Shown: piece after piece, positions 4,925 to 64,000 of the stretch
Layout of the letters: every line of letters starts with the position of its first letter
Numbering within the stretch: position 1 is the stretch's first letter
The notes under the pieces: generated by a model
What the model saw: the letters and a program-made list of their open reading frames with translations, nothing else
Databases searched by the model: none
Told to the model about the DNA's origin: nothing
Made by a program: the position numbers and the translations under genes
Source: Gammaproteobacteria bacterium
GTDB taxonomy: Bacteria; Pseudomonadota; Gammaproteobacteria; SZUA-140
Assembly (NCBI GenBank): GCA_016218365.1
Contig: JACREF010000005.1
Span: forward strand, 130 to 64,129
DNA length: 64,000 nt
Direction of reading: 5' to 3'

Positions 4925-5185
4925 GCCGCGATCCCCTATACGCCCTTCGATACGCGACTGTGTCGCTACTCAGGACAGGCCCTGATGTACCGATCGTGGT
5001 GAGTAGGCGCCCTTCGATACGCGGCTGGGGCCGCTACTCAGGACAGGCTCTAAATGCCGATCGTGGTGAGTAGGCGCCCTTCGATACGCGACTATGTCGC
5101 TACTCAGGACAGGCTCTTCGATATGCAGTCAGGGCTGCTACTCAGGGCAGGCTCAAGCGCCGTATCGAACCATGAACGGTACGGA
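4925..5185. repeat. REP/BIME-like array: ~6 clustered 35-40 nt palindromic units (consensus CCTTCGATACGCGAC-N3-GTCGCTACTCAGGACAGGC plus GCCTACTCACCACGA(A/T)CGG units)
   Basis: Direct reading; same units in both orientations recur at ~22040-22265, ~27890-28255, ~60195-60365. Confidence 0.75.
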
Positions 5186-20614: not shown

Positions 20615-22039
20615 ATGACGACACCCCCGATCTGCGCCGGCAAGTTCTGCCATAACGTCGAGGCCATGGTCGACAAGGCCATCGCCGCCCTCGACATCGA
20701 CACCGGCGTCGCCGCGGCGATCAAGACCTGCCACTCGGTGTTACAGGTGAGGTTTCCGGTCAAAATCCGTGGAAAGATTGAAGTTTTCACCGGCTGGCGC
20801 GCGGTGCACAGCACCCATCGGCTGCCGGCCAAGGGCGGCATCCGTTATGCGCCGATCGCCGACCAGGACGAGGTCGAGGCGCTGGCGGCGCTGATGACCT
20901 TCAAATGCGCCGTGGTCGATGTGCCGTTCGGCGGCAGCAAGGGCGCGCTGCATATCGACCCGAAACACTATAACCGCGAGGAGATGGAGGCGATCACCCG
21001 CCGCTTTGCCGTCGAGCTGGCGCGCAAGGACTTCCTGAACCCGGCGACCAATGTACCGGCCCCGGACGTCGGCACCGGCCAGCGCGAGATGGCATGGATC
21101 GCCGACACCTACAAGCATCTGCACCCCGAGGACATCAATCATCTGGCCTGTGTGACCGGCAAACCGGTGCACCACGGTGGCATCCGTGGCCGCGTCGAGG
21201 CCACCGGCCGTGGCGTGCAATATGCGCTGCGCGAGTTCTTCCGCCACCCCGAGGACGTGGCCCGGGCCGGGCTGAGCGGCACGCTCGACGGCAAGCGCAT
21301 CGTCATCCAGGGTCTGGGCAACGTCGGCTATCATGCCGCGAAATTCCTGTCAGAGGAGGATGGCGCAGTCATCATTGCCGTCATCGAGCGCGACGGCGCC
21401 GTGATCAACGATGATGGTCTGAATATCGAAGAGCTGTACCGGCATATCGTCGAACACAAGACGATCCAGGGCTATCACGGCGGCCGCTTTGTCGCCGACG
21501 GCCTGCCGGTGCTGGAACTGCCCTGTGACCTGCTGATCCCGGCCGCACTCGAAGGCCAGATCACCGCCGCCAATGCCGGGCGCATCCAGGCCCGGATGGT
21601 CGTCGAGGCCGCCAACGGCCCGTGCACCTTCGAGGCCGACACCATCCTGAACCAGCGCGGCATCCTGGTACTGCCCGACATCTATATCAACGCCGGTGGC
21701 GTCGTGGTGTCGTATTTCGAATGGATACGCAACATCTCGCACATCCGCTTTGGCCGCATGCAGCGCCGCCTTGAAGAACAACAGGGTGACCGGCTGACGA
21801 CGGTGCTGGAGCAGGTCACCGGCACCCGTCTCGATGACACGATGCGGGCACAGATCAGCCGCGGCGCCGACGAGATCGACCTGGTGCGCTCCGGCCTCGA
21901 CGACACGATGCGGCTCGCCTACCAGGAGATGCGCCAGGTCTGGCATCACAACCCCAAGGTCCACGACCTGCGCACCGCCGCCTTCGTCATCGCCGTCGAA
22001 AAGATCGCCCGCTCCTACCTCGACGTCGGGCTGTTCTGA
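20615..22039 (+). CDS. gdh: Glu/Leu/Phe/Val-family glutamate dehydrogenase
   Basis: FGGSKGALHIDP catalytic-Lys motif, GLGNVGYHAAKFL Rossmann motif; start probably MTTPPICAG ~20615. Confidence 0.85.
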   Translation: MTTPPICAGKFCHNVEAMVDKAIAALDIDTGVAAAIKTCHSVLQVRFPVKIRGKIEVFTGWRAVHSTHRLPAKGGIRYAPIADQDEVEALAALMTFKCAVVDVPFGGSKGALHIDPKHYNREEMEAITRRFAVELARKDFLNPATNVPAPDVGTGQREMAWIADTYKHLHPEDINHLACVTGKPVHHGGIRGRVEATGRGVQYALREFFRHPEDVARAGLSGTLDGKRIVIQGLGNVGYHAAKFLSEEDGAVIIAVIERDGAVINDDGLNIEELYRHIVEHKTIQGYHGGRFVADGLPVLELPCDLLIPAALEGQITAANAGRIQARMVVEAANGPCTFEADTILNQRGILVLPDIYINAGGVVVSYFEWIRNISHIRFGRMQRRLEEQQGDRLTTVLEQVTGTRLDDTMRAQISRGADEIDLVRSGLDDTMRLAYQEMRQVWHHNPKVHDLRTAAFVIAVEKIARSYLDVGLF

Positions 22040-22265
22040 GCCTGTCCTGAGTAGCGACATAGTCGCGTATCGAAGAGCCTGTCCTGAGTAGCGACATAGT
22101 CGCGTATCGAAGGGCCTACTCACCACGAACGGCTCCATCTACCCGTTCATCCTGAGTAGCGCTGCGTAGCAGCGCGTATGGTTCGATACGGCGCTGCGCG
22201 CCTACTCACCATGATCGGTATATGTTAGGGCCTGAGTAGCGACATAGTCGCGTATCGAAGGACCC
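22040..22265. repeat. REP/BIME-like array (same family as 4925-5185, opposite orientation units CCTGTCCTGAGTAGCGACATAGTCGCGTATCGAAG)
   Basis: Direct reading; starts immediately after gdh stop. Confidence 0.75.
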
Positions 22266-22324
22266 ACCTTGACACCGTCCCGCCCCACCGCTATCATTCC
22301 AATACTCTTTGGAATGATAGCACC

Positions 22325-23488: not shown

Positions 23489-23607
23489 GGCCTCTATTGA
23501 TGCGTCATTCCGGGCGCAGCCTGGCTGCGACCCGGAATCCAGCGTTTCACCGATCAGGGGCGGGAGTGACGCACAGGAATACATCGGCCCCACAGGGAGA
23601 GACAATC

Positions 23608-25711: not shown

Positions 25712-26866
25712 ATGAGTGACGGAAAAACCATATTGATCCTCGGCGGCGGCACCGGCGGCATCGTCGCGGCCAGTCGGCTGCGCAAGGGGCTGGGCCGCGA
25801 ACACCGGATAGTGCTGATCGAACGCGCGGCGGACTATCTGTTCGCACCATCGCTGCTGTGGCTGATGACGGGGCTGCGCAAACGCACCGCGATCTCGCGG
25901 CCGCTGACGCGGCTGGCGCACGGCATTGAGCGGGTCCATGGCAACATCGAGGCCATCGATCCGCTGCACCGCACCGTGCAGGTCAACGGCAGGAAGCTGA
26001 GCGGCGATTACCTGGTGGTGGCGCTGGGCGCGGAACTGGCGCCGCAGACCGTACCGGGGCTGGCCGAGGCCGGTCACAACCTGTACGAACTGGCCGGGGC
26101 CGAGGCCTTGCGCGATGCCCGGTTGAACTGGCGCGCGGGCCGGCTCATCGTGCTGGTCAGTGCCGTGCCGTTCAAGTGTCCGGCGGCGCCGTATGAGGCG
26201 GCGATGCTGCTGGAATACGATTGCCGCAAACGCCGGATCCGCGATCAGGTGACGATTGATTTATATACCCCGGAACCCGGGCCGATGCCGGTGGCCGGCG
26301 CCGAGGTCTCGCAACAGGTGCGCCAGATCGTCGAGGCCAAGGGCATCGGCTATCACCCCGGCCATGCGGTGAGCCGCGTCGATGCCGGCGCGCGCCGCAT
26401 CGAGTTCGCCAACGGCGCGGCCACCGGTTTTGATCTGCTGGTCTACGTGCCGCCGCACCGGGCGCCGCAGGTGGTGCAGGACGCGGGACTGTGCGGCGAA
26501 TCCGGCTGGATTGCGGTCGACCGCCAGACGCTGCAGACCCGCTTTCCGGGCGTCTACGCACTCGGCGATGTCACCGGCATCATGCTGGCGATGGGCCGGC
26601 CGCTGCCCAAGGCCGGGGTGTTCGCCCATGGCGAGGCCGAGGTGGTGGCGCACAATCTGGTCTGCGCGCTCACCGGCCGCGGCCAGCCGCGGCAGTTCGA
26701 TGGCCATGGCGAGTGTTTTGTCGAGACCGGCGACGGCAAGGCCGGCTTCGGCAGCGGCGATTTCTTCGCCGAGCCGCTGCCGCAGGTGCGGCTGCGCCCG
26801 CCCGGCCGCAGCCTGCACCTCGGCAAGATCGCCTTCGAGAAGTTCTGGCTGTTCGAATGGTTTTAG
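25712..26866 (+). CDS. Sulfide:quinone oxidoreductase-like FAD-dependent pyridine nucleotide-disulfide oxidoreductase
   Basis: N-terminal ILILGGGTGG FAD motif; FKCPAAPYEAAMLL cysteine motif typical of SQR-family; likely start MSDGKTIL. Confidence 0.7.
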   Translation: MSDGKTILILGGGTGGIVAASRLRKGLGREHRIVLIERAADYLFAPSLLWLMTGLRKRTAISRPLTRLAHGIERVHGNIEAIDPLHRTVQVNGRKLSGDYLVVALGAELAPQTVPGLAEAGHNLYELAGAEALRDARLNWRAGRLIVLVSAVPFKCPAAPYEAAMLLEYDCRKRRIRDQVTIDLYTPEPGPMPVAGAEVSQQVRQIVEAKGIGYHPGHAVSRVDAGARRIEFANGAATGFDLLVYVPPHRAPQVVQDAGLCGESGWIAVDRQTLQTRFPGVYALGDVTGIMLAMGRPLPKAGVFAHGEAEVVAHNLVCALTGRGQPRQFDGHGECFVETGDGKAGFGSGDFFAEPLPQVRLRPPGRSLHLGKIAFEKFWLFEWF

Positions 26867-26967
26867 GAACCTCTGATTAATCAGAGGTTCTCTGTGGCAC
26901 ACGGACGTGCTCTGAGAATTCCAGGATGGAATTATTCAGAGCTTCCTTTAGCAAGCGGAGCGGAACG

Positions 26968-27889: not shown

Positions 27890-28255
27890 CGTCGGGCTGT
27901 CCTGAGACGCCCCCGTTCGTCCTAACGGGTGTTCCTGTTCCATGGCAGGTGTGGGCCGTTCGTCCTGAGTAGTGCTGCGCAGCAGCACGTATCGAAGGGT
28001 CGCCCTGAGTAGCGGCAGCATGCCTGGTATCGAAGGGCAGTAGCGCCGTCCATGGTTCGATACGGCACTGCGTGCCTACTCACCACGAACGGTCTCCTCC
28101 TCCCCGCCCGTCCTGAGTAGCGACATAGTCGCGTATCGAAGGGCCTACTCACCACGAACGGGTGTTCCTGTTAGTTCCATGGCAGGTGTGGACCGTTCGC
28201 CCTGAGTAGCGGCCAACGGCCGCGTATCGAAGGACCGCATATCCCCCACCAAAAC
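27890..28255. repeat. REP/BIME-like array (largest copy cluster; mixed orientations)
   Basis: Direct reading: GTCCTGAGTAGCG...CGTATCGAAGG and GCCTACTCACCACGAACGG units repeated ~8 times. Confidence 0.75.
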
Positions 28256-38274: not shown

Positions 38275-38525
38275 TAATTGGGGTCAGAGTAAAAACTCTC
38301 TGGCTACTAATTTTGGTCAGAGTAGCGGGTAGCCTGGGTTGAGCGACAGCGAAACCCGGGTTTCACTCCGTTCAACCCAGGCTACCTCCTATCAAAAACA
38401 CTTAAGTAAGTACCATTCGGGTCAGAGTAAAAACTCTCTATACTATTCCGTTAGCGGAGGCGATGTTAGAAAAGTTTTTACTCCAATTTAACCCCAATTT
38501 ACCATTTACAATTTACCAATTTACG
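38275..38525. mobile_element. MITE-like element, family 1 (copy 1): terminal inverted repeats GGGGTCAGAGTAAAAACTCT.../...AGAGTTTTTACTC, internal long hairpin GGTAGCCTGGGTTGAGCGACAGCGAAACCCGGGTTTCACTCCGTTCAACCCAGGCTACC
   Basis: Direct reading; near-identical copies at ~42555-42745 and ~54140-54400; related short form ~52545-52650. Confidence 0.7.
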
Positions 38526-39699: not shown

Positions 39700-39870
39700 T
39701 AGGGAAGCTCCGATCAATTCAAAAATTACCACAGCCGTCATTCCCGCGAAAGCGGGAATCCAGGTGTTCCAAGTATTTATGGATGCCCGCTGGAGCCTGC
39801 CCTCGACCTCGATCGGGGGCGGGCATGACGACAATTCGAATTAATTCAGAGCTTCCCTGCATTAACACGA
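39700..39870. mobile_element. MITE-like element, family 2 (copy a): TIRs ...CTCTGATTAATTCAAAAATTACCACAG / ...ATTCGAATTAATTCAGAG; internal hairpins GTCATTCCCGCGAAAGCGGGAATCC and GCCCGC-N-GCGGGC
   Basis: Direct reading; copies at ~51775-51900 (truncated), ~63660-63811 (perfect TIRs), fragment ~48478-48548, TIR-only palindromes ~26866-26893 and ~40548-40600. Confidence 0.7.
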
Positions 39871-40427: not shown

Positions 40428-40661
40428 GTGCATCTCCTTGTGATAGCGCTGCGCTGAAGCGTAGCGAATTCCATATACAGGCGCAAGCCGGCCGGCCGCT
40501 CCAGAGATCCTGGTCAGAGATCAAATATTACTAAGAAGGCACTGATTAATTCGTATTGTCGTGGTAATTTTTGAATTAATCAGCGTTTCCCTGATATTTA
40601 GAATCAATTCCACTCTGACCCGGTTTTACTTCATGGATTGCCACACTGAGCGTAATGCTGC

Positions 40662-42554: not shown

Positions 42555-42745
42555 CAGCAGTAAAAACTCTTCTCTATACTGGTGAGATAGAGTTTTTACT
42601 CTGACCAGAATGGCACTTACTTAAGGAGGTAGCCGGCGGGTAGCCTGGGTTGAGCGACAGTGAAACCCGGGTTTCACTCCGTTCAACCCAGGCTACCTCC
42701 TATCAAAAACGCTTAAGTAAGTACCATTCTACTCTGATCACAAAC
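42555..42745. mobile_element. MITE-like element family 1 (copy 2), with full ~120-nt palindrome GAATGGCACTTACTTAAGGAGGTAGCC...GGCTACCTCC...CTTAAGTAAGTACCATTC
   Basis: Direct reading. Confidence 0.7.
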
Positions 42746-43978: not shown

Positions 43979-44239
43979 TTTGATTCCTCCCATCGGTGGT
44001 GGAGCCCGTAAGAGATTATAGTGCGAGCATCGGCTCCGATACGCTCACCGAACATTGCGCTTGAGGCAGGCGTGTTGCAACGCACCACACGTCACTCTCG
44101 AAGCGCTTGATAGGCGCCTGCATAGGCTTACAGATGTGAAAGTGCATTTTGCACAACCTGAGCCACAGATTCTTCACGTAAAACCTTCCGCTTGCAATAC
44201 CTTGACTGAAGCCACTCTTTTGGTTACTTAGAATCAAAA

Positions 44240-44318
44240 GATATCAAAAGGGGCGGATTCTATTGAAATGATAGATACTCACCAGCCCTGGGTATACGAT
44301 TTCAATCGAATCTGACCC
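44240..44318. repeat. 78-bp direct repeat copy A (AAGATATCAAAAGGGGCGGATTCTATTGAAATGATAGATACTCACCAGCCCTGGGTATACGATTTCAATCGAATCTGACCC), left boundary of low-GC island
   Basis: ~95% identical copy at ~49340-49416; internal 14-bp inverted arms GATTCTATTGAAAT / ATTTCAATCGAATC. Confidence 0.8.
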
Positions 44319-44319
44319 T

Positions 44320-44405
44320 TTTGCTCTTTTCGTCCTGACCCTTTTGCTCTTTTCGTCCCGATTATTCGTCTCCCGATTACGCGTCCCGATTACGCCCGCC
44401 GCGAT
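44320..44405. repeat. Short tandem repeats: 2x CCCTTTTGCTCTTTTCGTCC then ~4x CCCGATTACGC(G) units
   Basis: Direct reading immediately inside island boundary. Confidence 0.7.
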
Positions 44406-44418
44406 TACGCCGCGTTCC

Positions 44419-44862
44419 TTAATAAATACTCTTGGCAGCCTTCTTCTTTGGCGACTCAATATTCGCACGCGAAGGATCATGGAAAAAGTGCTGGCAGTGC
44501 ATGCATCGCCAACCGGTAATTTCATTCTTGAGCGGAGTAACGATCTTTGTTGCTCGGCACTTTGCACAGTATCTGAGCGCAGTGAAGTGACTTACCCATG
44601 TTCCTGTCGGTTCATCCCATTGGAGCCAAGGGCGCTGAAGGAACAAGAATGCAAATAGAACCAAGCACAGCGACAGCAATAGTGCCAATAGTTTTAGGAC
44701 TGTCGTTGGCTGTTGTGCTTCCAGGGATGCCAATCGTGGCGCCAGGCTATCTTGGAGAAGCAGCACAATTCCTGGCGGTGTCGTGGCTAATAGAATCAGC
44801 GCTAGTGGCAACCACCACTTTTTTAGAAATTCACCAAGGGGCATCATTTGGGACCCTAACAC
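44419..44862 (-). CDS. Hypothetical membrane protein with C-terminal CxxC...CxxC zinc-ribbon (island cargo)
   Basis: 147 aa; two hydrophobic helices then ...YCAKCRATKIV...WRCMHCQHFFHD; low-GC codon usage distinct from flanks. Confidence 0.4.
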   Translation of the reverse strand: MLGSQMMPLGEFLKKWWLPLALILLATTPPGIVLLLQDSLAPRLASLEAQQPTTVLKLLALLLSLCLVLFAFLFLQRPWLQWDEPTGTWVSHFTALRYCAKCRATKIVTPLKNEITGWRCMHCQHFFHDPSRANIESPKKKAAKSIY

Positions 44863-44925
44863 GTTTGAGTTCAGCGGCGCGCCGCTTTTTGGCGCGTCCG
44901 CTGGAACGATTTGTTAGCGGCATTT

Positions 44926-45663
44926 TCACCGAAGTCTCGCGGCCTCTGCGGCAACGTGGCCAGCCAGAGCCGTGACAAATGTTCTGAGTCCTGTCATCGC
45001 CGACATCTCTGAAAACTCACCACTCTCAGCAGAACTGCGGGGCGACGTGATGAGGGCGGCAGTGGTGTAAAGCTGTTCCTTTACCAATTTCTGACAGAGT
45101 AAGTCATACCGGATGAGGTACGACGCCCCCTTAAACTCCTTGAAAACAGGAAAGTGCGGTGACGAATCCCTAACCGCACATCTGGATTTTGGGGCATCCT
45201 CAACCATCATCAACCAGCCAACGAAAGGGCGTGGTTGTTTGCCAAATGCCTCTTCACGGTAGGCTGTCCAGAGATCGTGCGCGGTGCCAATGGCTTCCTC
45301 GGTTCGATTGTTGAAGTTGTTCCCGAACGAGCCAACTTGGCTTTTCAGCTCGATGGCCGCGATCAACTCGCCTTTGTAGATGACAAGAAGATCCCAGAGC
45401 TTTGTCGGCCTGAAGTAGCCGGGCAGTGTCAGCATCGCCCTGTTCCGATGAATCTCGGCATGGGCAAGTCCATTGGCCCGCACGATGTCGAGTACCAAAG
45501 CCAGGAATCCGTCCATGTTCTTGCCAGCGGTAACACCAGCGCGCTCACCTTGGTCAGCCTTCCCGGACTCAATCTGCTTTTGTCTCGCTGCTTCCCGGTT
45601 TCCCCAGAAGGCTTTTACAGCCTCATGTGCCTTCTGTTCGTAATCGACAAGATCAAGCGCCAT
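44926..45663 (-). CDS. Type II restriction endonuclease, XhoI/PaeR7I-like
   Basis: 245 aa (R.PaeR7I is 246 aa), start overlaps stop of upstream N6A-MTase gene as in the PaeR7I R-M operon (M then R); family assignment by recollection of fold/size, not by alignment. Confidence 0.5.
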
Positions 45664-47403
45664 TTATTCTCCGTTGCCTCCAAGGGAGGATCGTTCTTCG
45701 TTGCTAAGTCCAAATAGTTTAAATACTGCGCGATTGCAGGCTTGCAAATCTCTCTTTTTTGCAGCGTCCGCTAGCTCCGTCCGCAACTTTGTCGAGACAT
45801 CCGCCCATTGCGGAATGCGGATGCGACGTAGGTATTGCGCCTGAAACCGGAGGAATCCGCCGCGCATTTTGGTTGAGTAGGTCGTCATGAATAGACGTGT
45901 AACGGCTGAAAGCATCACAGCTTGTAATGCCCTCAAGTCCCACTCGTCGGACGTGACATAGTAAAGGTTGTGGTGCGGGTACAGCTCCCCACCCTCAAAA
46001 ACTATATGGGCCTCGCCCTTGATGTCGGGAATCAGGAGCTTCGGCCTCGATGCCAGCTCTGGAGTAATACGGTCGATCGTGCGATACCAGTTGGCCGGGG
46101 TCTTCTGGGCGCAGTGACGACCCACGATAACCTCTCGTCGCACCTCCAAATAGCGGAGCAGGCGCGGATAGTTCCGTAACTCGACAAGACCGCCACCCTC
46201 GGCAAATGGATTGATTACGCCTTGGCCGTGCCATTGCACCTCGCCGGACATAATGTCTTTCGTTGTAACCAGCGGCAGTTTGCGATCAGACTCCACGTCG
46301 AGTGCGTCAAAGTCGCCGATATATGCCTTATCCGCGCCAGTTGCTACGCCGATACCCACCTTGCAGCCCACCTCTTCCAATCTAGGGAATTGTTTTTCAA
46401 GGCGGCGAATCAGCGCCATCTGATCCGACGATTCAAGCAACCACGGCTCCGACCCATTGGTGACTCGTGCCAGTTCGCGCACCGGCCCGGGTTCTTTCGG
46501 CAGGCTCCGCGCACGTAGCGTGTCGGCCAAGATCGCCAGCGTGGCCTGGTCGATGGTAGGGCGATGAGCAATGCGCGTCGCACCGGGTGTATCCCTGCTG
46601 ATGACGGTGATGGCCGGATAGGCGATCACCTCGGAGTGGAACGCTGGGGTGTCCATCATATCGACGTAGATTTTCAGGTGGAACTGCTCAGCCACGAGAC
46701 TGCGAAGCGGACCACCGTAACGGTTTTTCATCCAGCGATCTGCGCAAATAAAGCCCAAGCTGCCGCCTTGTTTGAGCACCATTAACGACCGCTCGATGAA
46801 CGGAATGTAGATGTCGGCCCGGTCATACATCGTCTGGTAGCGGCTACGGTACTCGGCCAGCAACGGTGTTGGAATCAGCTCTTGGCGAACATAGGGAGGG
46901 TTCCCTACAACAAAGTCGAATTGCCCTTCAAGTGGTGCAAGAAGGAAATCCCCCTGCACAAGCCAACGATCAGCAAGAGCTACTGCGGATTGATCCCCTA
47001 TCTCATCTTGCTTGAGCCGCTCGATCACGGCTGCGCGGGTGGTAGAAAAGGTCTTGCGATGCAGTTCAACAGCGCGAATTGCGTCGCCTAACTCTTCAAC
47101 TACAGTTCCTGCGTGTTGCGATGACCTCCATGCTGCCAGCAGTCGCCCGATTGCTGGTAATAGAAAGTCACCCCCACCGAATGAAGGTTCTAAAAGTCGT
47201 TTTTCATGGAGCGGTTGATCCTCCGTGTAGCCAGCCAAATCGAGGATGAAATCCACCACCTCGGTGCGTGTAAAGATTGCCCCGCGAGATTCGGCTCCTG
47301 CTGCTGTAGACAATTTTTCAATCGCAGCAGCGACCATAGGCGAATGTGTGCAAACCGAATCACCAAATAAATCAAAATTAAGCTGCCTTGATGCCAAGTT
47401 CAT
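45664..47403 (-). CDS. Type II N6-adenine DNA methyltransferase (gamma class, Eco57I/PaeR7I-M-like)
   Basis: 579 aa; catalytic motif [13 protein letters not shown], motif I region [12 protein letters not shown]; upstream partner of the endonuclease. Confidence 0.8.
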
Positions 47404-47458
47404 ATTCCTATTTGATCTGTGCTTATTGCTCGACTAGCCGCTAACGTAAATTAGCTGG

Positions 47459-47857
47459 CTACGCACCATCTACGGCTTTCTTTATTGCGTCAAAGGTGAA
47501 GGACATGGCCCATTTCGCGCCGACATTTAGCAAACCTGAAGGTGTGGTATTTTGAGAATCCGTTTTTACAGCAACGATCTTCCTCTTGAGTTCGACAGCC
47601 TTGCTAATCTCCCAGGCAACCCATTTACTTATATTGGTTTTTTTCCCAACGATACACAGAAAATACGTCGCATTATTTATCTTCGCGGAGATGGCCCGCT
47701 TTATTGCAGCAGCATCCGTGCTGTCAATCGAAACGTCTGCTGAATGATCGGTGAAACCAAAGTCAAACTCTTTGTTGGCATCCCATGCCAGCAGCATGTT
47801 TTTGTAGTTCCGGTCGTTATCGTAATCGTAGCTAATGAATATCGTTTTCTTAGCCAT
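47459..47857 (-). CDS. TIR-like domain protein (DUF1863/MTH538-type)
   Basis: 132 aa; MAKKTIFISYDYDND...AIKRAISAKINNATYFLCIVGKKTNISKWVAWEI pattern of DUF1863 TIR-like domains; overlaps preceding SLATT gene by ~8 nt. Confidence 0.6.
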   Translation of the reverse strand: MAKKTIFISYDYDNDRNYKNMLLAWDANKEFDFGFTDHSADVSIDSTDAAAIKRAISAKINNATYFLCIVGKKTNISKWVAWEISKAVELKRKIVAVKTDSQNTTPSGLLNVGAKWAMSFTFDAIKKAVDGA

Positions 47858-48341
47858 GTTGTTTCTCTTTTTCGTTAGTGATATGTGCCCAAGTTGTGTT
47901 TTCTTTCGAAATTACGCCTTCCACGCGCTCGACGAGCGCGTGGAAGGCGTCATCTTCGTTATATGGCGATGTCTTTGTCATATAGAGGAATTTCTCGTGC
48001 TTGAGCGTTTCCGCCACCGTTCGGTACTCAATCCAGTTCTCTTGGAATTTATATAAGGTCACCAGACCGGAGATCACAGCAACGCAAACCGCTATTACGC
48101 CAACAATACCCTTGAGGTAATGCGTGTCGTTAGTGATTTCACTTACAAAAAACGGGATGCTCATTGCAAACACAATCTCAAGTACGCGGAGCCCTCTAAA
48201 CCATTTCTGGTTCCATTGACTCTTCTGTCCGTACCAGGCAATTTGATCATCGAGCCGATCTCGAATGTACTCTTCTGGTGACATGCGTACTCCTGTTGTT
48301 TTGCCGCTAACAGTATTTAGACGGCCGCCGCCTAGCATCAA
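47850..48341 (-). CDS. SLATT-domain protein (DUF4231, predicted 2-TM membrane effector)
   Basis: 163 aa; MSPEEYIRDRLDDQIAWYGQKSQWNQKWF, two TM helices (VLEIVFAMSIPFFV / IVGVIAVCVAVISGLV), ...YRTVAETLKHEKFLYMT; start may be internal M (MSPEEY). Confidence 0.6.
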   Translation of the reverse strand: MMLGGGRLNTVSGKTTGVRMSPEEYIRDRLDDQIAWYGQKSQWNQKWFRGLRVLEIVFAMSIPFFVSEITNDTHYLKGIVGVIAVCVAVISGLVTLYKFQENWIEYRTVAETLKHEKFLYMTKTSPYNEDDAFHALVERVEGVISKENTTWAHITNEKEKQHG

Positions 48342-48577
48342 CCGATTTGTTGTTGATCACTTATATGTCCAGCGTATAGAAGAGCGCAGTATGGCGCAAG
48401 ATCCCGGAGGAACATGGCATCTTCGCAGCGGGACATTGAGCGGCGTCACGACATGATAGGCCGCCAGCATGGCATAAACCTGCCAACTGGACTCCCGCTG
48501 CAGCCTGCCCTCGACCTCGATCGGGGGCGGGAATGACTCCTGGAGAGCGAGGCAATAACGGCAACGGGCTAATCCCT

Positions 48578-49340
48578 TTATCGGTCACGGCGCAGCCGGC
48601 CCAGCCCTTCCAGCAGCCGGTCGATACGGCCCCACAGCTGTTCACGCAACCGCGCAGCCAGCCCGCGCTGATGCCAGTCTGGATAGCGGATCTCGATGCA
48701 GTCACGCAGATCACCGTCGATGACCGCACAAACTTGGTCGGCGAACGGCTGATCATCGATCTCCTGATTGGCCTCCAGATTCCAGTGCAAGTTCCAGCGG
48801 TCGAAGTTGCTGGAGCCGATCGACACCCAGTCATCGCAGATCACCGCCTTGGCATGCATGAAGCGCGGCTGATATTCAAACACCCGCACGCCGGCACGCA
48901 GCAGCGGGCTGTAGAAGCGCCGCCCGGCATGGGCGATTGCTGGGTGGTCGCTGACCGGGCCGGGCAGCAGCAACCGGACATCGACACCGCGCTGCGCCGC
49001 CTGCCGCAATGCGCGCAGCGTGCGCCGGGATGGCACGAAATAGGCGGTCATCAGCCAGATGCGGCGCTCCGCGCCTTGCAGCCGGTAGTACAATGAACGG
49101 CGGATGTCCTGCACCCGCAACGCGACCGTTGACGCCATCGGTGACGGTTGCATCTGTGATATTGATACTTGAGTCAATCGGCGTGATCGGGCTGCGGTGC
49201 TGCTCGCGCCACACCTGCATGAACAGCGCCTGCCAGTCGACCAGCACTGCGCCTTCGATGCTGAGCATGTGCTCGCGCCAGCTGCGTTGCGGCCGGCGCG
49301 GGTGGTCAAAGTCATCGCTGAGGCCGGCGCCGCCGACAAG
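48578..49340 (-). pseudogene. 3' fragment of cardiolipin-synthase-like phospholipase D gene (second HKD domain intact, upstream part frameshifted, N-terminus missing)
   Basis: C-terminal FMHAKAVICDDWVSIGSSNFDRWNLHWNLEAN HKD motif in ORF 48578..49369; preceding cls-like segment IEGAVLVDWQALFMQVWREQ lies in a different frame (ORF 48876..49268); no first HKD; abuts repeat B. Confidence 0.6.
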
Positions 49341-49416
49341 ATATCAAAAGGGGCGGATTCTATTGACATGAGAGATACTCACCAGCCCTGGGTACGATTT
49401 CAATCGAATCTGACCC
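49340..49416. repeat. 78-bp direct repeat copy B, right boundary of low-GC island
   Basis: AAGATATCAAAAGGGGCGGATTCTATTGACATGAGAGATACTCACCAGCCCTGGGTACGATTTCAATCGAATCTGACCC. Confidence 0.8.
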
Positions 49417-50659: not shown

Positions 50660-51745
50660 TCACTCATGGTAATCAAACGCCTTGTAGCCGTGCTGTTTTA
50701 TCAAATCATCGCGCTCGGCGGCCTTCAGGTCGGCGCGCACCATCTCGGCGACCAGCTCCTTGAAGGTGATCTTCGGTGTCCAGCCCAGCTTGTCACGCGC
50801 CTTGCTCGGATCACCGAGCAGCGTCTCGACCTCGGTGGGGCGGAAATAGCGCGGATCGACCTCGACGATGCAGGCGCCGGTCTCGGCATCATAACCCTTC
50901 TCATCGACGCCGCTGCCCTGCCAGCGCATCTGGATGCCCAGTTCATGGGCGGCGGCATTGACAAAATCACGCACCGAATACTGCACGCCGGTGGCGATGA
51001 CAAAATCCTCGGGCTGGTCCTGCTGCAGCATCAGCCACTGCATCTCGACATAGTCACGGGCATGGCCCCAGTCGCGCAAGGAATCGAGGTTGCCGAGAAA
51101 CAACTTGTCCTGCAGTCCGAGCTTGATGCGCGCCATCGCCCGGGTGATCTTGCGGGTGACGAAGGTCTCGCCGCGCACCGGGCTCTCGTGGTTGAACAGG
51201 ATGCCGTTGCAAGCATAGATGCCGTAGGCCTCGCGGTAATTGACGGTGATCCAGTAGGCATACAGCTTGGCGACCGCATACGGCGAGCGCGGATAGAATG
51301 GCGTGGTCTCCTTCTGCGGGATCTCCTGCACCAGACCATACAGCTCCGAGGTCGAGGCCTGATAGAAGCGGGTCTTGTCCTCCAGGCCGAGGATGCGGAT
51401 CGCCTCGAGGATACGCAGCGCGCCGATGCCGTCGGCATTGGCGGTGTATTCCGGCTCCTCGAACGACACCGCAACATGGCTCTGCGCCGCCAGGTTGTAG
51501 ATCTCGTCGGGCTGCACCTGCTGGATGATGCGGATCAGATTGGTCGAATCGGTCAGGTCACCGTGATGCAGGATGAAGCGCCGGCCCTTGACGTGCGGAT
51601 CCTGGTATAGATGATCGATACGGTCGGTGTTGAACAGCGAGGCCCGGCGCTTGATGCCGTGGACCTCATACCCTTTTTCCAGCAGGAATTCGGCCAGATA
51701 GGCGCCGTCCTGGCCGGTGACACCGGTGATCAATGCCCGCTTCAT
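50660..51745 (-). CDS. gmd: GDP-mannose 4,6-dehydratase
   Basis: [30 protein letters not shown]..., canonical Gmd throughout. Confidence 0.95.
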
Positions 51746-51774
51746 GATGCCTGCTTCCAATTTGTTGTTACGGA

Positions 51775-51900
51775 TAATGTATGGGAAACTCTGATTAATT
51801 CAAAATTACCACAGCTGTCATTCCCGCGAAAGCGGGAATCCAGGTATTACAGGACGTTGTGGATGCCCGCTTCATGATGCCTGCTTCCAATTTGTGATTA
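51775..51900. mobile_element. MITE-like family 2, truncated copy b, flanked by ~35-bp direct duplication of the gmd start/leader (GCCCGCTTCATGATGCCTGCTTCCAATTTGT)
   Basis: Direct reading: left TIR and CATTCCCGCGAAAGCGGGAATCC hairpin present, right end replaced by repeat of 51740-51775. Confidence 0.65.
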
Positions 51901-51931
51901 CGAAGAATATATGCATTATAGCGCCAGTCTG

Positions 51932-52544: not shown

Positions 52545-52650
52545 GAAAATTGGGGTCAGAGACCAATTTTTGCTAATCCACGACACCCGATCATTATATC
52601 GATAAAAAATTGGTCTCTGACCCCAATTTTGCCAATTTTAAATTAATCTG
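52545..52650. mobile_element. Short MITE-like element with ~25-bp perfect TIRs (AAATTGGGGTCAGAGACCAATTTTT ... AAAAATTGGTCTCTGACCCCAATTTT), related to family 1 ends
   Basis: Direct reading. Confidence 0.6.
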
Positions 52651-52657
52651 AGTTTTC

Positions 52658-54121
52658 CTAATCTTTCCTGCCGTACATGTCATCGAAACGGACGATGTCA
52701 TCCTCGCCGAGGTAGCTGCCCGATTGCACCTCGATGATCTCCAGCGCCACGGTGCCGGGGTTCTCTAATCGGTGGGTCTCGCCGACCGGGATGTAGGTCG
52801 ACTGGTTCTCGGTCAGCAGGAACACCTCGCTACCGCGCGTGACGCGGGCCGTGCCGCGCACCACCACCCAGTGTTCGGCGCGGTGATGATGCATCTGCAA
52901 TGACAACCGGCTGCCGGGATGGACGGTGATGCGCTTGACCTGGAAGCCCGGACCGCTGTCGACGCCTTCGTAATAACCCCAGGGCCGAAACACCCGGCGG
53001 TGGGTCTGGTGCTCGGTACGGGCATCGTTCTTGATGCGCTCGACGATCTTCTTGACGTCCTGGGCGTGATCCTTGTGCACCACCAGCACCGCATCGGCGG
53101 TCTCGATGACGATGGTATCCTGTATCCCGATCGCCGCCAGCAACCGGCTGTCAGCCAGCAACAGACTGTTGCGGCTGTCGTGGGCATAGACATCGCCGCG
53201 CGTGACATTGCCCTGGGCATCGGCCGCGCCGACCTCCCACAAGGCCGGAAAGGAGCCGATGTCCGACCAGCCGGCCGCGAGCGGAATCACACAGCTGCGT
53301 AACCCGGCACCGGAACCCGCGCTGATCTTCTCCATCACGGCATAATCGATCGAGTCACTGTGGCAGGCGCGGAACTGTTCATTATCCAGCCGATAGAAAT
53401 CCCGATCCGGACTGCCATGTTGATAGCTGTGCAGACAGGCCTGATACATCGCTGGTTGCAGCTGCTGCATCGCCTGCAGCCACAGCGAGGCCTGCATCAT
53501 GAACATGCCACTGTTCCACAGATAGTCGCCGGACTGCAGATACTGCGTCGCGGTCGCGGCATCGGGCTTTTCGACAAAACGCTCGAGGGCAAAACCTGTC
53601 GAACCCGGCAGCGCCTGCCCTTTTCTGATATAACCATAACCGGTCTCGGCCCGCCGCGGCACGATGCCAAAGGTCACCAGATAGCCCTGCCCGGCCAGCG
53701 TCAGCGCCTGACACACGGCATCATGAAAGGCCGGCTGCTGCGTGATGACATGATCGGCCGGCATCACCATCATCACACTGTCGTGACCGGCCGCGGTGAT
53801 GTGCAGGGCGGCCAGCGTCAAGGCTGGGGCGGTGTTGCGGCCGACCGGTTCGAGGATGATTGCGGAGACTGCACTGCCCACCTGGCGAGCCTGCTCGGCC
53901 ACCAGGAAACGGTGTTCTTCATTGCACACGATCAGCGCCGGCAACACTGCCAGGCCCTGCGCGCAGCAGCTGTCGATGCCATTGAGCCGGGTCAGCGTGT
54001 CCTGCAGCAGACTGTTGTCGCCGGACAAGGTCAGCAACTGTTTCGGATAATACTCCCGCGACAGCGGCCACAGCCGGGTGCCGGCACCGCCGGACAGGAT
54101 GACAGGTTGGATCGGTTTCAT
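52658..54121 (-). CDS. manC: Mannose-1-phosphate guanylyltransferase / mannose-6-phosphate isomerase (bifunctional, cupin C-terminus)
   Basis: 487 aa; N-terminal ILSGGAGTRLWPLSR nucleotidyltransferase motif, C-terminal cupin (HHHRAEHWVVVRGTARV). Confidence 0.9.
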   Translation of the reverse strand: MKPIQPVILSGGAGTRLWPLSREYYPKQLLTLSGDNSLLQDTLTRLNGIDSCCAQGLAVLPALIVCNEEHRFLVAEQARQVGSAVSAIILEPVGRNTAPALTLAALHITAAGHDSVMMVMPADHVITQQPAFHDAVCQALTLAGQGYLVTFGIVPRRAETGYGYIRKGQALPGSTGFALERFVEKPDAATATQYLQSGDYLWNSGMFMMQASLWLQAMQQLQPAMYQACLHSYQHGSPDRDFYRLDNEQFRACHSDSIDYAVMEKISAGSGAGLRSCVIPLAAGWSDIGSFPALWEVGAADAQGNVTRGDVYAHDSRNSLLLADSRLLAAIGIQDTIVIETADAVLVVHKDHAQDVKKIVERIKNDARTEHQTHRRVFRPWGYYEGVDSGPGFQVKRITVHPGSRLSLQMHHHRAEHWVVVRGTARVTRGSEVFLLTENQSTYIPVGETHRLENPGTVALEIIEVQSGSYLGEDDIVRFDDMYGRKD

Positions 54122-54139: not shown

Positions 54140-54400
54140 AGTAAAAAATAAATTGGGGTCAGTAAATTGGGGTCAGAGTAGAATGGCACTTACTTAAGGA
54201 GGTAGCCGGCGGGTAGCCTGGGTTGAGCGACAGCGAAACCCGGGTTTCACTCCGTTCAACCCAGGCTACCTCCTATCAAAAACGCTTAAGTAAGTGCCAT
54301 TCGGGTCAGAGTAAAAACTCTCATCTCAAATATTCCTGACACAAATATGCCGCTAGAGTTTTTACTCTGACCCCAATTTTCCCCAATTTTCCAATTTTTT
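54140..54400. mobile_element. MITE-like family 1 (copy 4, full length with both TIRs and ~120-nt palindrome)
   Basis: Direct reading. Confidence 0.7.
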
Positions 54401-59289: not shown

Positions 59290-59480
59290 CGGATCCGCTG
59301 TGCTGAATACTCAGCGGTTGATTGATATCTGCCTGAACATGTTATTCAGGCACCTCATGAAGCTCTGATCAATACGTCATTCCGGGCGCCGCCAGACGGC
59401 GACCCGGAATCCAGCACTTGCCGATCAGCAGGTTACTGGATGCCCGCATACGCGGGAATGACTACACAAATCAGCTCATC
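59290..59480. repeat. Cluster of GC-rich hairpins including variant family-2 modules (GTCATTCCGGGCGCCGCCAGACGGCGACCCGGAATCC; GATGCCCGCATACGCGGGAATGAC)
   Basis: Direct reading; similar variant at ~23495-23580. Confidence 0.55.
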
Positions 59481-59481
59481 C

Positions 59482-60194: not shown

Positions 60195-60365
60195 CCCTGT
60201 CATTAACCGCCGTCCATGGTTCGATACGGCGCTCGAGCCTGCCCTGAGTAGCGGCACAGCCGCGTATGGTTCGATACGGCGCTGCGCGCCTACTCACCAC
60301 GATCGGCCTCATCCTCCCCGTTCGCCCTGAGTAGCGATGCGTAGCATCGCGTATCGAAGGGCGAC
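60195..60365. repeat. REP/BIME-like array (4th locus)
   Basis: CCTGAGTAGCG...CGTATGGTTCGATACGGCGCTGCGCGCCTACTCACCACGATCGG units. Confidence 0.75.
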
Positions 60366-63659: not shown

Positions 63660-63811
63660 AGAACCTCTGATTAATTCAAAAATTACCACAGCCGTCATTC
63701 CCGCGAAAGCGGGAATCCAGGTATTACAGGCCTTTATGGATGCCCGCTGGAGGCCTGCCCTCGACCCGATCGGGGCGGGCATGACGACAATTCGATTAAT
63801 CAGAACCTCTC
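63660..63811. mobile_element. MITE-like family 2 (copy c) with perfect TIRs GAACCTCTGATTAAT / ATTAATCAGAACCTCTC, inserted between pheA stop and DAHP-synthase start
   Basis: Direct reading. Confidence 0.7.
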
Positions 63812-64000
63812 TAAACGACTGCCCGGGGATAAGAACCGAGCACCTTGACCATCGAGGCCTGCTGTTCCAGCTCGCGCAGCGCACCGGCCACGGCCGGCTC
63901 CTGGACATGCCCTTCGACATCGACGAAAAACACATACTCCCACACCGCACGCCGCGACGGCCGCGATTCGATCCGCGTCAGCGTGATGCCCTGACGCGAG
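63811..64000 (-). CDS. pheA: Partial (5' end beyond window) chorismate mutase/prephenate dehydratase, C-terminal ACT domain
   Basis: Manual minus-strand translation ...SRQGITLTRIESRPSRRAVWEYVFFVDVEGHVQEPAVAGALRELEQQASMVKVLGSYPRAVV* (ESRP / ACT signature). Confidence 0.8.
   Translation of the reverse strand, partial: SRQGITLTRIESRPSRRAVWEYVFFVDVEGHVQEPAVAGALRELEQQASMVKVLGSYPRAVV

Follow-up and report, generated by a model that had tools for sequence, protein, structure and literature searches.

A stretch of 64,000 nt from a metagenome-assembled, uncultured gammaproteobacterium (the window; all coordinates are relative to it) was analysed for a family of short repeats, which the first-pass annotation had listed as family 2 of elements resembling miniature inverted-repeat transposable elements (MITEs). 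Family 2 was real, and it was probably a small, non-coding mobile element; it was built as a nested composite. Comparison of the sequences identified its two internal hairpins as a convergent pair of Ssn-related motifs (SRMs), and the left one was an exact copy of the Neisseria Transformation Sequence (NTS). The first-pass annotation had noted both hairpins, which were present, and had missed their identity; the pair was the best conserved and most informative part of the element. The explanation that we favour, and that we regard as fairly probable, is a non-autonomous, non-coding MITE of about 150 bp with nested layers, in which IS5-like ends enclose a convergent pair of Ssn hairpins.

The NTS was defined in 2025, in a Nature Communications paper on the Ssn nuclease family, as the 28-nt sequence CGTCATTCCCGCGMAVGCGGGAATCYRG (PMC11893778). 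SsnA is a small GIY-YIG enzyme that binds and cuts the NTS hairpin only when it is single-stranded and only in one orientation (PMC11893778). The degenerate SRM is known from many phyla, and ssn was present in 81% of the genomes with >200 SRM (PMC11893778). The link to the NTS was made by a full-text literature search with GTCATTCCCGCG, which led to this paper.

All the family-2 loci listed in the first-pass annotation were located, and their coordinates were refined. There were two full copies (A and B), one truncated copy (C), one fragment, two diverged relatives and two short forms, and every copy was intergenic. The loci and their parts were as follows.

39703-39856, plus strand: copy A, full, 154 bp, with an AHSA1-family gene (start 39661, minus) on one side and a YCII gene (stop 40002, minus) on the other
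39703-39718, plus strand: left terminal inverted repeat (TIR) of copy A, GGAAGCTCCGATCAAT; family consensus from metagenome contigs
39719-39735, plus strand: AT-rich inner left arm of copy A, TCAAAAATTACCACAGC, identical in A and B
39736-39763, plus strand: left hairpin of copy A, exact NTS consensus, with a dRS3-type ATTCCC-N8-GGGAAT inside
39764-39779, no strand: AT-rich spacer of 16 nt between the hairpins of copy A
39780-39830, minus strand: right hairpin of copy A, NTS-like with a 28-nt loop insertion, CGTCATGCCCGC-[CCCCGATCGAGGTCGAGGGCAGGCTCCA]-GCGGGCATCCA
39841-39856, minus strand: right TIR of copy A, reverse complement GGAAGCTCTGAATTAA
63660-63810, plus strand: copy B, full, 151 bp, filling the spacer between pheA and the gene for 3-deoxy-D-arabino-heptulosonate 7-phosphate (DAHP) synthase and adjoining the pheA stop codon (63811-63813)
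63693-63720, plus strand: exact NTS of copy B
63737-63786, minus strand: long-loop NTS-like hairpin of copy B
51784-51870, plus strand: truncated copy C, running from the left TIR through inner arm, NTS and spacer to 11 nt into the right hairpin
59358-59481, plus strand: diverged relative in the spacer from the cmk stop to the rpsA start, flanked by CTCA and CTAA
59375-59414, plus strand: plus-strand hairpin of this relative, CGTCATTCCGGG..CCCGGAATCCAG
59436-59463, minus strand: minus-strand hairpin of this relative, AGTCATTCCCGCGTATGCGGGCATCCAG
23490-23590, plus strand: decayed relative, with an NTS-like hairpin at 23503-23542 (plus) and a truncated hairpin of the long-loop type ending at 23571 (minus)
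48488-48538, minus strand: lone long-loop NTS-like hairpin without arms, in a putative defence island between the SLATT and PLD genes
40535-40590, minus strand: arms-only form of 56 bp, in which the two TIRs and the two inner arms are present and the hairpin pair is missing, flanked by CTAA and CTGA
26866-26946, plus strand: 81-bp sister element with the same TIRs and a different interior, flanked by TTTA on both sides

The 15-mer GAACCTCTGATTAAT gave seven matches with <=2 mismatches, compared with 0.05 expected, and the 28-nt motif was present exactly more than once. These results excluded chance. A repeat finder grouped 39704, 51784 and 63661 as one family and 39780, 48488 and 63737 as a linked sub-module. 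Copies A and B were 89% identical overall. Folding was more stable than that of shuffled sequences, with z = -3.9 for copy B, -2.5 for copy A and -5.2 for 59356-59478.

The exact NTS was found at 39736 in copy A and at 63693 in copy B (28 of 28 positions each), and the copy C motif at 51816-51843 had one mismatch to the consensus. The degenerate SRM pattern had four matches in the window, the fourth being 59436-59463 on the minus strand, while Markov simulations gave 0.48 ± 0.67. The right hairpins, on the minus strand, kept the frame CGTCAT-stem-loop-stem-ATCCA with the 28-nt insertion in the loop, and they failed the published SRM pattern. All four complete pairs (A, B, 59358-59481 and 23490-23590) were convergent with their CGTCAT ends outward, and copy C had the same orientation. 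In 59358-59481, the short arms TGAAGCTCTGATCAAT ... ACAAATCAGCTCATCC adjoined the pair directly. Judging from the oligonucleotide design in PMC11893778, the SsnA cut would lie 3 nt upstream of the NTS, in copy A between 39732 and 39733. This position fell inside the stretch that was invariant between A and B.

A strand bias was also observed. In 5 of 5 pair-bearing elements, counting the truncated copy C, the short NTS was a plus-strand motif and its long-loop partner a minus-strand one. Plus-strand GC skew was negative in nearly every 2-kb bin, and the pair orientation may follow the direction of replication; 5/5 alone was not significant.

Conservation between copies A and B was uneven. The identity was 75% in the left TIR, 69% in the 16-nt spacer and 71% in the right TIR, and it reached 94% in the right hairpin. 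The NTS together with the 17 nt of inner arm upstream of it was identical at 45 of 45 positions. By our arithmetic, 45 consecutive identities at a background of ~71% had a probability of ~2e-7. Such a run amid TIRs and spacer at that level suggested that selection, or gene conversion between NTS copies, had kept the NTS and its upstream arm constant. This pointed to constraint, or gene conversion, on a nuclease target, and marked the constrained part of a decaying element. The junctions between arm and hairpin were identical in A, B and C, which indicated that the composite was formed once and was then multiplied as a unit.

The same pair layout was present in other bacteria. When copy B was compared by BLAST with plasmid and chromid records, the NTS core alone was matched (Azospirillum, Neisseria, Photobacterium, Halioglobus and Sphingopyxis), and the best of these matches had the same convergent pair with inverted arms specific to each lineage. 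Homologues of ssn were searched for with a GIY-YIG query sequence, and Pfam confirmed the matches as GIY-YIG. In N. gonorrhoeae, 3 of 3 pairs in a 50-kb region were convergent, and arrays of convergent pairs lay on both sides of ssnA. In plasmid AZO_p3 of Azospirillum lipoferum 4B (L014 1876-2384), an ssn-type GIY-YIG gene was located between sufB and sufC with one convergent NTS pair on each side, and this unit looked like an insertion into the suf operon. Photobacterium sp. GJ3 (L013 2449-4198) carried at least five convergent NTS pairs in tandem with a period of ~320 bp, directly downstream of an ssn homologue. In Aeromonas caviae, there was a single compact unit of NTS (plus), ssn GIY-YIG gene and NTS (minus). 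The convergent pair is thus a recurring unit across alpha-, beta- and gammaproteobacteria. In its layout, the window element is exactly the Aeromonas arrangement with a 16-nt spacer in place of the gene, that is, a gene-less form of that unit.

The composite itself is lineage-specific, and both of its building blocks are widespread. The inner arm GATYAATTCAAAAATTACCAC was searched in 185,579 species genomes and gave three matches only (Phaeodactylibacter, Treponema and Marinagarivorans), which were judged to be chance because they lacked an adjacent CTCTGA or NTS. The junction of arm and NTS had 0 matches in JGI metagenomes, which indicated that the composite was confined to a poorly sampled lineage. 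In the protein collection, the closest relatives of the DAHP synthase encoded in the window did not exceed 82% identity. A likeness of the inner arm GATTAATTCAAAAATTACCAC to a gonococcal NTS arm, GATTGAAATCAAAAATGTACAC, was considered and set aside as possibly the best of many chance matches, since other gonococcal NTS copies have unrelated arms.

The nearest available relatives were compared over syntenic loci of 21 kb each with ~80% protein identity (L004-L008; gyrA-serC-serA-pheA-aroF-tyrA-aroA-cmk-rpsA). No SRM was found in these loci. The first-pass annotation had proposed comparing orthologous intergenic regions, and the element was absent from the orthologous spacers of all five relatives, which are only ~80% identical in protein and include no close strain. 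Their pheA-aroF spacers held palindromes of other kinds, with GCCACAGAGGGCACGGAAGACACAG-type arms in L004-L006 (9835-10001 in L004) and AG-rich arms in L007 and L008 (9864-10001 in L007). Hairpin elements seem to accumulate preferentially in the spacer between pheA and the DAHP synthase gene.

The outer layer of the element was the 16-bp inverted repeat GGAAsCTCTGATTAAT. A metagenome scan with the fused-arm palindrome GAASCTCTGATTAATCAGAGSTTC found it in 31 contigs of 30-62% GC (L016-L046). Their consensus, GGAAsCTCTGATTAATCAGAGsTTCC, was 26 bp long and nearly invariant, and by our count the two S positions covaried in 28 of the 31 copies. Thirteen of these contigs came from one metagenome (Ga0123353). 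The same termini were not restricted to family 2: a ~130-bp family and homologues of the 81-bp element of the window, small elements whose interiors are unrelated, had them too. No paper containing the TIR sequence turned up in a literature search, and no published account of the 26-bp palindrome was found.

By our count, YTAR stood at the left flank in 15 of 31 metagenome palindromes and at the right flank in 15 of 31, compared with ~0.5 expected. Seven flank pairs were perfect direct repeats, including the asymmetric CTAA, TTAG and TAAG. In the window, all ten flanks of five elements (A, B, arms-only, 59358-59481 and 26866-26946) started with YT; they were CTAG left and CTGC right in copy A, and TTTA left and CTAA right in copy B. 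IS5 makes 4-bp YTAR target duplications (PMC5009759). The IS5 ends in an annotated record were GGAAGGTGCGAATAAG, and 11 of 16 positions were common with GGAACCTCTGATTAAG. In sequence, the termini resemble IS5-group ends. For the outer structure, the suggestion that family 2 is MITE-like gained support from the termini conserved in 31 unrelated contigs and in other small elements, from the strong enrichment of YTAR or YTNR in the flanks, from the perfect 4-bp duplication around the sister element and from the absence of the element at orthologous sites in the nearest available relatives; a cognate transposase was not found. Transposases with these ends were looked for in the window (Pfam on island genes), at the 31 metagenome loci and among the collected plasmids, and none was detected; the search for an insertion sequence with matching ends, which the first-pass annotation had also proposed, came back empty. 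tblastn with the IS5 transposase gave no match, the open reading frames beside extra TIRs in L031 and L027 were threonine synthase and other housekeeping genes, and BLAST against plasmids matched neither the palindrome nor the related 130-bp MITE.

Based on the above results, the history of the element may be described as follows. An IS5-type DDE transposase acting in trans would have inserted it with a 4-bp target duplication that has since decayed. The hairpin pair would derive from an 'NTS→ ssn ←NTS' unit whose gene gave way to the 16-nt spacer. The composite would have formed once and spread as a unit. After insertion, the termini and the spacer would have drifted while the NTS and the 17 nt upstream remained unchanged. 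In single-stranded DNA, each strand would show one hairpin in the orientation bound by an Ssn-type GIY-YIG nuclease. Such a nuclease, if it acted like SsnA of Neisseria, would cut 3 nt upstream of the motif. The short forms would most likely have arisen by internal deletion, either between the ATTAAT copies at the inner edges of the TIRs or at the base of the large hairpin. ATTAAT reads the same on both strands, so that every interior is enclosed by two directly oriented copies of it, one in each TIR, and a deletion between the two copies would reduce any member to the 26-bp palindrome.

The first-pass annotation had described two loci as bare TIR ends fused head-to-head. One of them, 40535-40590, was an arms-only form, and the other, 26866-26893, was the left end of the 81-bp element, whose TIRs are GGAACCTCTGATTAAT and GGAAGCTCTGAATAAT and whose first 26 bp form the palindrome GGAACCTCTGATTAATCAGAGGTTCT. 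Their interpretation as excision footprints was not supported, and internal deletion explained the short forms equally well or better. The TIRs had also been called perfect. They matched at ~17/19 positions with one indel in copy A, and in copy B only TCTGATTAAT was inverted, while the outer 9-mer AGAACCTCT was a direct repeat (63660-63668 and 63802-63810).

Several observations weigh against an IS5-like MITE carrying the hairpin pair. The window had no ssn gene (GIY-YIG, cd10448; motif regular expression, Pfam on 52 small open reading frames and tblastn with four Ssn proteins) and no transposase, so that both trans-acting enzymes are presumed for the organism. The target-site duplication that had been looked for was perfect (TTTA) at 26866-26946, and the family-2 copies had imperfect ones, at 2/4, 2/4, 3/4 and 3/4. 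Three metagenome flank pairs were perfect inverted repeats only, and part of the flank signal may therefore be an extension of the palindrome. The right terminus of copy B was aberrant; GAGGTTC was turned into GAACCTC, its own reverse complement, where an inverted repeat was expected. The assignment to IS5 was drawn from sequence features of two kinds only, the 11/16 TIR identity and the duplication motif. In addition, the TIR variants differed between A (G...C type) and B (C type), and the interior may therefore have entered separate, already existing palindromes independently, instead of one composite having been amplified.

We give a clearly smaller though real chance to one serious rival explanation. 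Here what moves is the NTS pair and its inner arms, carried by an Ssn-type single-strand nuclease or by recombination. This unit would have landed repeatedly in the TTAA apex of pre-existing, hairpin-forming GGAAsCTCTGA-TTAA-TCAGAGsTTCC palindromes, and the 'TIRs' would be target sequence. The core was indeed far better conserved than the termini, the palindrome variants differed between A (GGAAGCTC) and B (AGAACCTC), and 59358-59481 and 23490-23590 had pairs centred in similar arms without the inner arms. TTAA bracketed the interior on both sides in copy B and in the arms-only form, but it belongs to the self-complementary ATTAAT of both TIRs and need not be a duplication. The Azospirillum ssn gene and its NTS pairs inside the suf operon suggested that such a unit moves; however, no strand-transfer or ligation activity is known for Ssn, and its mobility has only been hypothesised (PMC11893778). 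In addition, 0 of the 31 metagenome palindrome contigs contained an NTS pair, and there were single SRM matches in L027 and L036.

Full copies read ...ATTACCAC-AGC-CGTCAT...ATGAC-GACAAT..., and the arms-only form read ...ATTACCAC|GACAAT..., which on the minus strand is ...TTCAAAAATTACCAC|GACAATACGAA.... The left boundary (ACCAC^AGC-CGTCAT) coincided with the cut position suggested for Ssn from PMC11893778. However, the right boundary was not its mirror image, as it lay inside CGTCAT instead of 3 nt upstream. Because of this asymmetry, the arms-only form was explained equally well by a slippage deletion across the base of the large hairpin, with a 2-nt AC microhomology, and the 'empty' site was a paralogue rather than an orthologue. 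A stronger version is that the NTS pair and inner arms form a single-stranded mobile unit, cut and pasted by an Ssn-type GIY-YIG nuclease and homing to palindrome apices, and we consider this improbable. On this version, 39703-39856 would be a natural 'filled' site and 40535-40590 an 'empty' one, with the left junction at the SsnA cut position. If it were true, the Ssn/NTS system would be a new class of transposable system, and its role would go beyond modulating transformation in a restriction-like manner.

That the element is a conserved cis-regulatory or RNA structure for the flanking genes (terminator, attenuator or hairpin that stabilises an mRNA, for instance of the aromatic amino-acid genes) was very unlikely. 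Copies did lie in the short same-strand spacers pheA-aroF, cmk-rpsA and cysC-gmd, the strands folded stably, and the relatives too had some palindrome in the pheA-aroF spacer. However, these palindromes of the relatives were unrelated in sequence, the same element stood beside functionally unrelated genes, and the core motif was common to Neisseria and Azospirillum in unrelated contexts. An Rfam search of the element gave no family, and terminator and promoter scans gave no such site. Least credible of all was the outer palindrome as an operator for a dimeric DNA-binding protein, with the family as its binding sites: a perfect 24-26-bp palindrome was kept across contigs of very different GC with covarying S positions (28/31), but its halves were 4 to ~120 bp apart depending on the member, which no single operator geometry tolerates, direct YTAR repeats stood in the flanks, the sites flanked unrelated genes, and 13 contigs of one metagenome carried it, as a dispersed repeat would.

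The nested MITE with IS5-like ends and an Ssn-hairpin pair was also compared with known systems. It agreed with the NTS/SRM-SsnA system in the 28/28 NTS of the left hairpin, in the CGTCAT-stem-loop-stem-ATCCAG frame of the other hairpins, and in being intergenic, hairpin-forming and multi-copy, with convergent pairs as around ssnA. It differed in its host, an uncultured gammaproteobacterium, in a right partner with a 28-nt loop insertion outside the SRM pattern, and in a pair 16 nt apart and embedded in a MITE with IS5-like ends. Neisserial intergenic mosaic elements (NIMEs) are dRS3-RS-dRS3 units, in which two ATTCCC-N8-GGGAAT repeats flank a repeat sequence (RS) of 19-214 bp, and they were reported in 2007 as confined to Neisseria (PMC1797815). 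The window elements resembled them in the GC-rich ATTCCC-N8-GGGAAT hairpins around an AT-rich spacer, in their mosaic, modular build with family variants, and in their intergenic position. However, the window units were isolated and not in long arrays, the spacer was 16 nt instead of 19-214 bp, the TIRs were extra, and only the left hairpin was a strict dRS3, the right one being ATGCCC...GGGCAT with a long loop. The Photobacterium array is a NIME-like array outside Neisseria.

Like IS5-group elements and their MITEs, the window elements had 16-bp ends that start with GGAA and end with TGA-TAA(G/T), YTAR-type flanks, and small, non-coding, multi-copy members with length variants. They were unlike them in that no transposase with these ends was present in the searched collections, the family-2 duplications were decayed, and the 26-bp fused-TIR form was far below the usual MITE size. 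Correia repeat enclosed elements (CREEs) of Neisseria are similar in being intergenic and ~100-155 bp long, with TIRs, full and internally deleted forms and an NTS-rich host genome. In contrast, their TIRs are 26-51 bp long and unrelated in sequence, they make a TA duplication, and they have no NTS hairpins; the sole sequence resemblance was a loose one in the AT-rich arm. Identity with Correia elements was rejected on the basis of these differences in termini and flanks. A further analogy, drawn in PMC11893778, was to repetitive extragenic palindromes (REPs) and bacterial interspersed mosaic elements (BIMEs) with their REP-associated tyrosine transposases (RAYT, TnpA-REP), and to IS200/IS605. 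There too, inverted hairpin pairs are recognised as single strands by a small nuclease, and the enzyme gene is flanked by its own repeats. However, Ssn is a GIY-YIG and not an HUH enzyme, its motif is another one, and no transposition activity is known for it.

The 2025 description of the Ssn/NTS system drew mainly on Neisseria. The locus placed an exact NTS in an uncultured gammaproteobacterium and suggested that an NTS pair can ride in an ordinary miniature element of the transposase type, which would be a simple route for spreading nuclease targets. A by-product of the analysis was the 26-bp fused-TIR palindrome, which has YTAR flanks and is widespread in metagenomes that differ greatly in GC content.

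Copy C was located between cysC and gmd and had a more complicated structure than the simple truncation that had been noted at ~51775-51900. It was truncated, and it ended at the 8-nt ATGCCCGC, a sequence that the element has in common with the start of gmd. At that point a duplicated start region of gmd set in.

51864-51912, no strand: second copy (X') of the gmd start region, with the first copy (X) at 51735-51783; the first 26 nt are identical and the rest diverges

The duplication took in the ribosome-binding site and the first four codons of gmd, on the far side of copy C. The join of copy C and X' created a 26-codon upstream open reading frame on the minus strand that reads through the NTS.

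Other repeats were observed in the window. The region 44238-49394 was a low-GC (~52%) island of ~5.1 kb between 57-bp direct repeats (44238-44294 and 49338-49394, 96% identical). It encoded an XhoI-type restriction enzyme, an Eco57I-type methylase, a ThsB-like TIR protein, a SLATT/DUF4231 protein and a PLD-family protein, and it looked like an integrated defence island. A further repeat family, ~146 bp long, was found at 38289-38434, 42600-42745 and 54173-54318, with a related sequence at 52545-52658. It had GGGTCAGAGTAAAAACTCT-type ends and a long GGTAGCCTGGGTTGAGCG...CGTTCAACCCAGGCTACC hairpin, and at 52642-52658 one copy ended with GGAAAACTCAGATTAAT, resembling the family-2 termini. REP-like short palindromes, CCTGAGTAGCGACATAGTCGCGTATCGAAGGGC and GGTTCGATACGGCGCTGCGCGCCTACTCACC, were clustered and partly in tandem at 4941, 5075, 22038-22280, 27956-28161 and 60208-60361.

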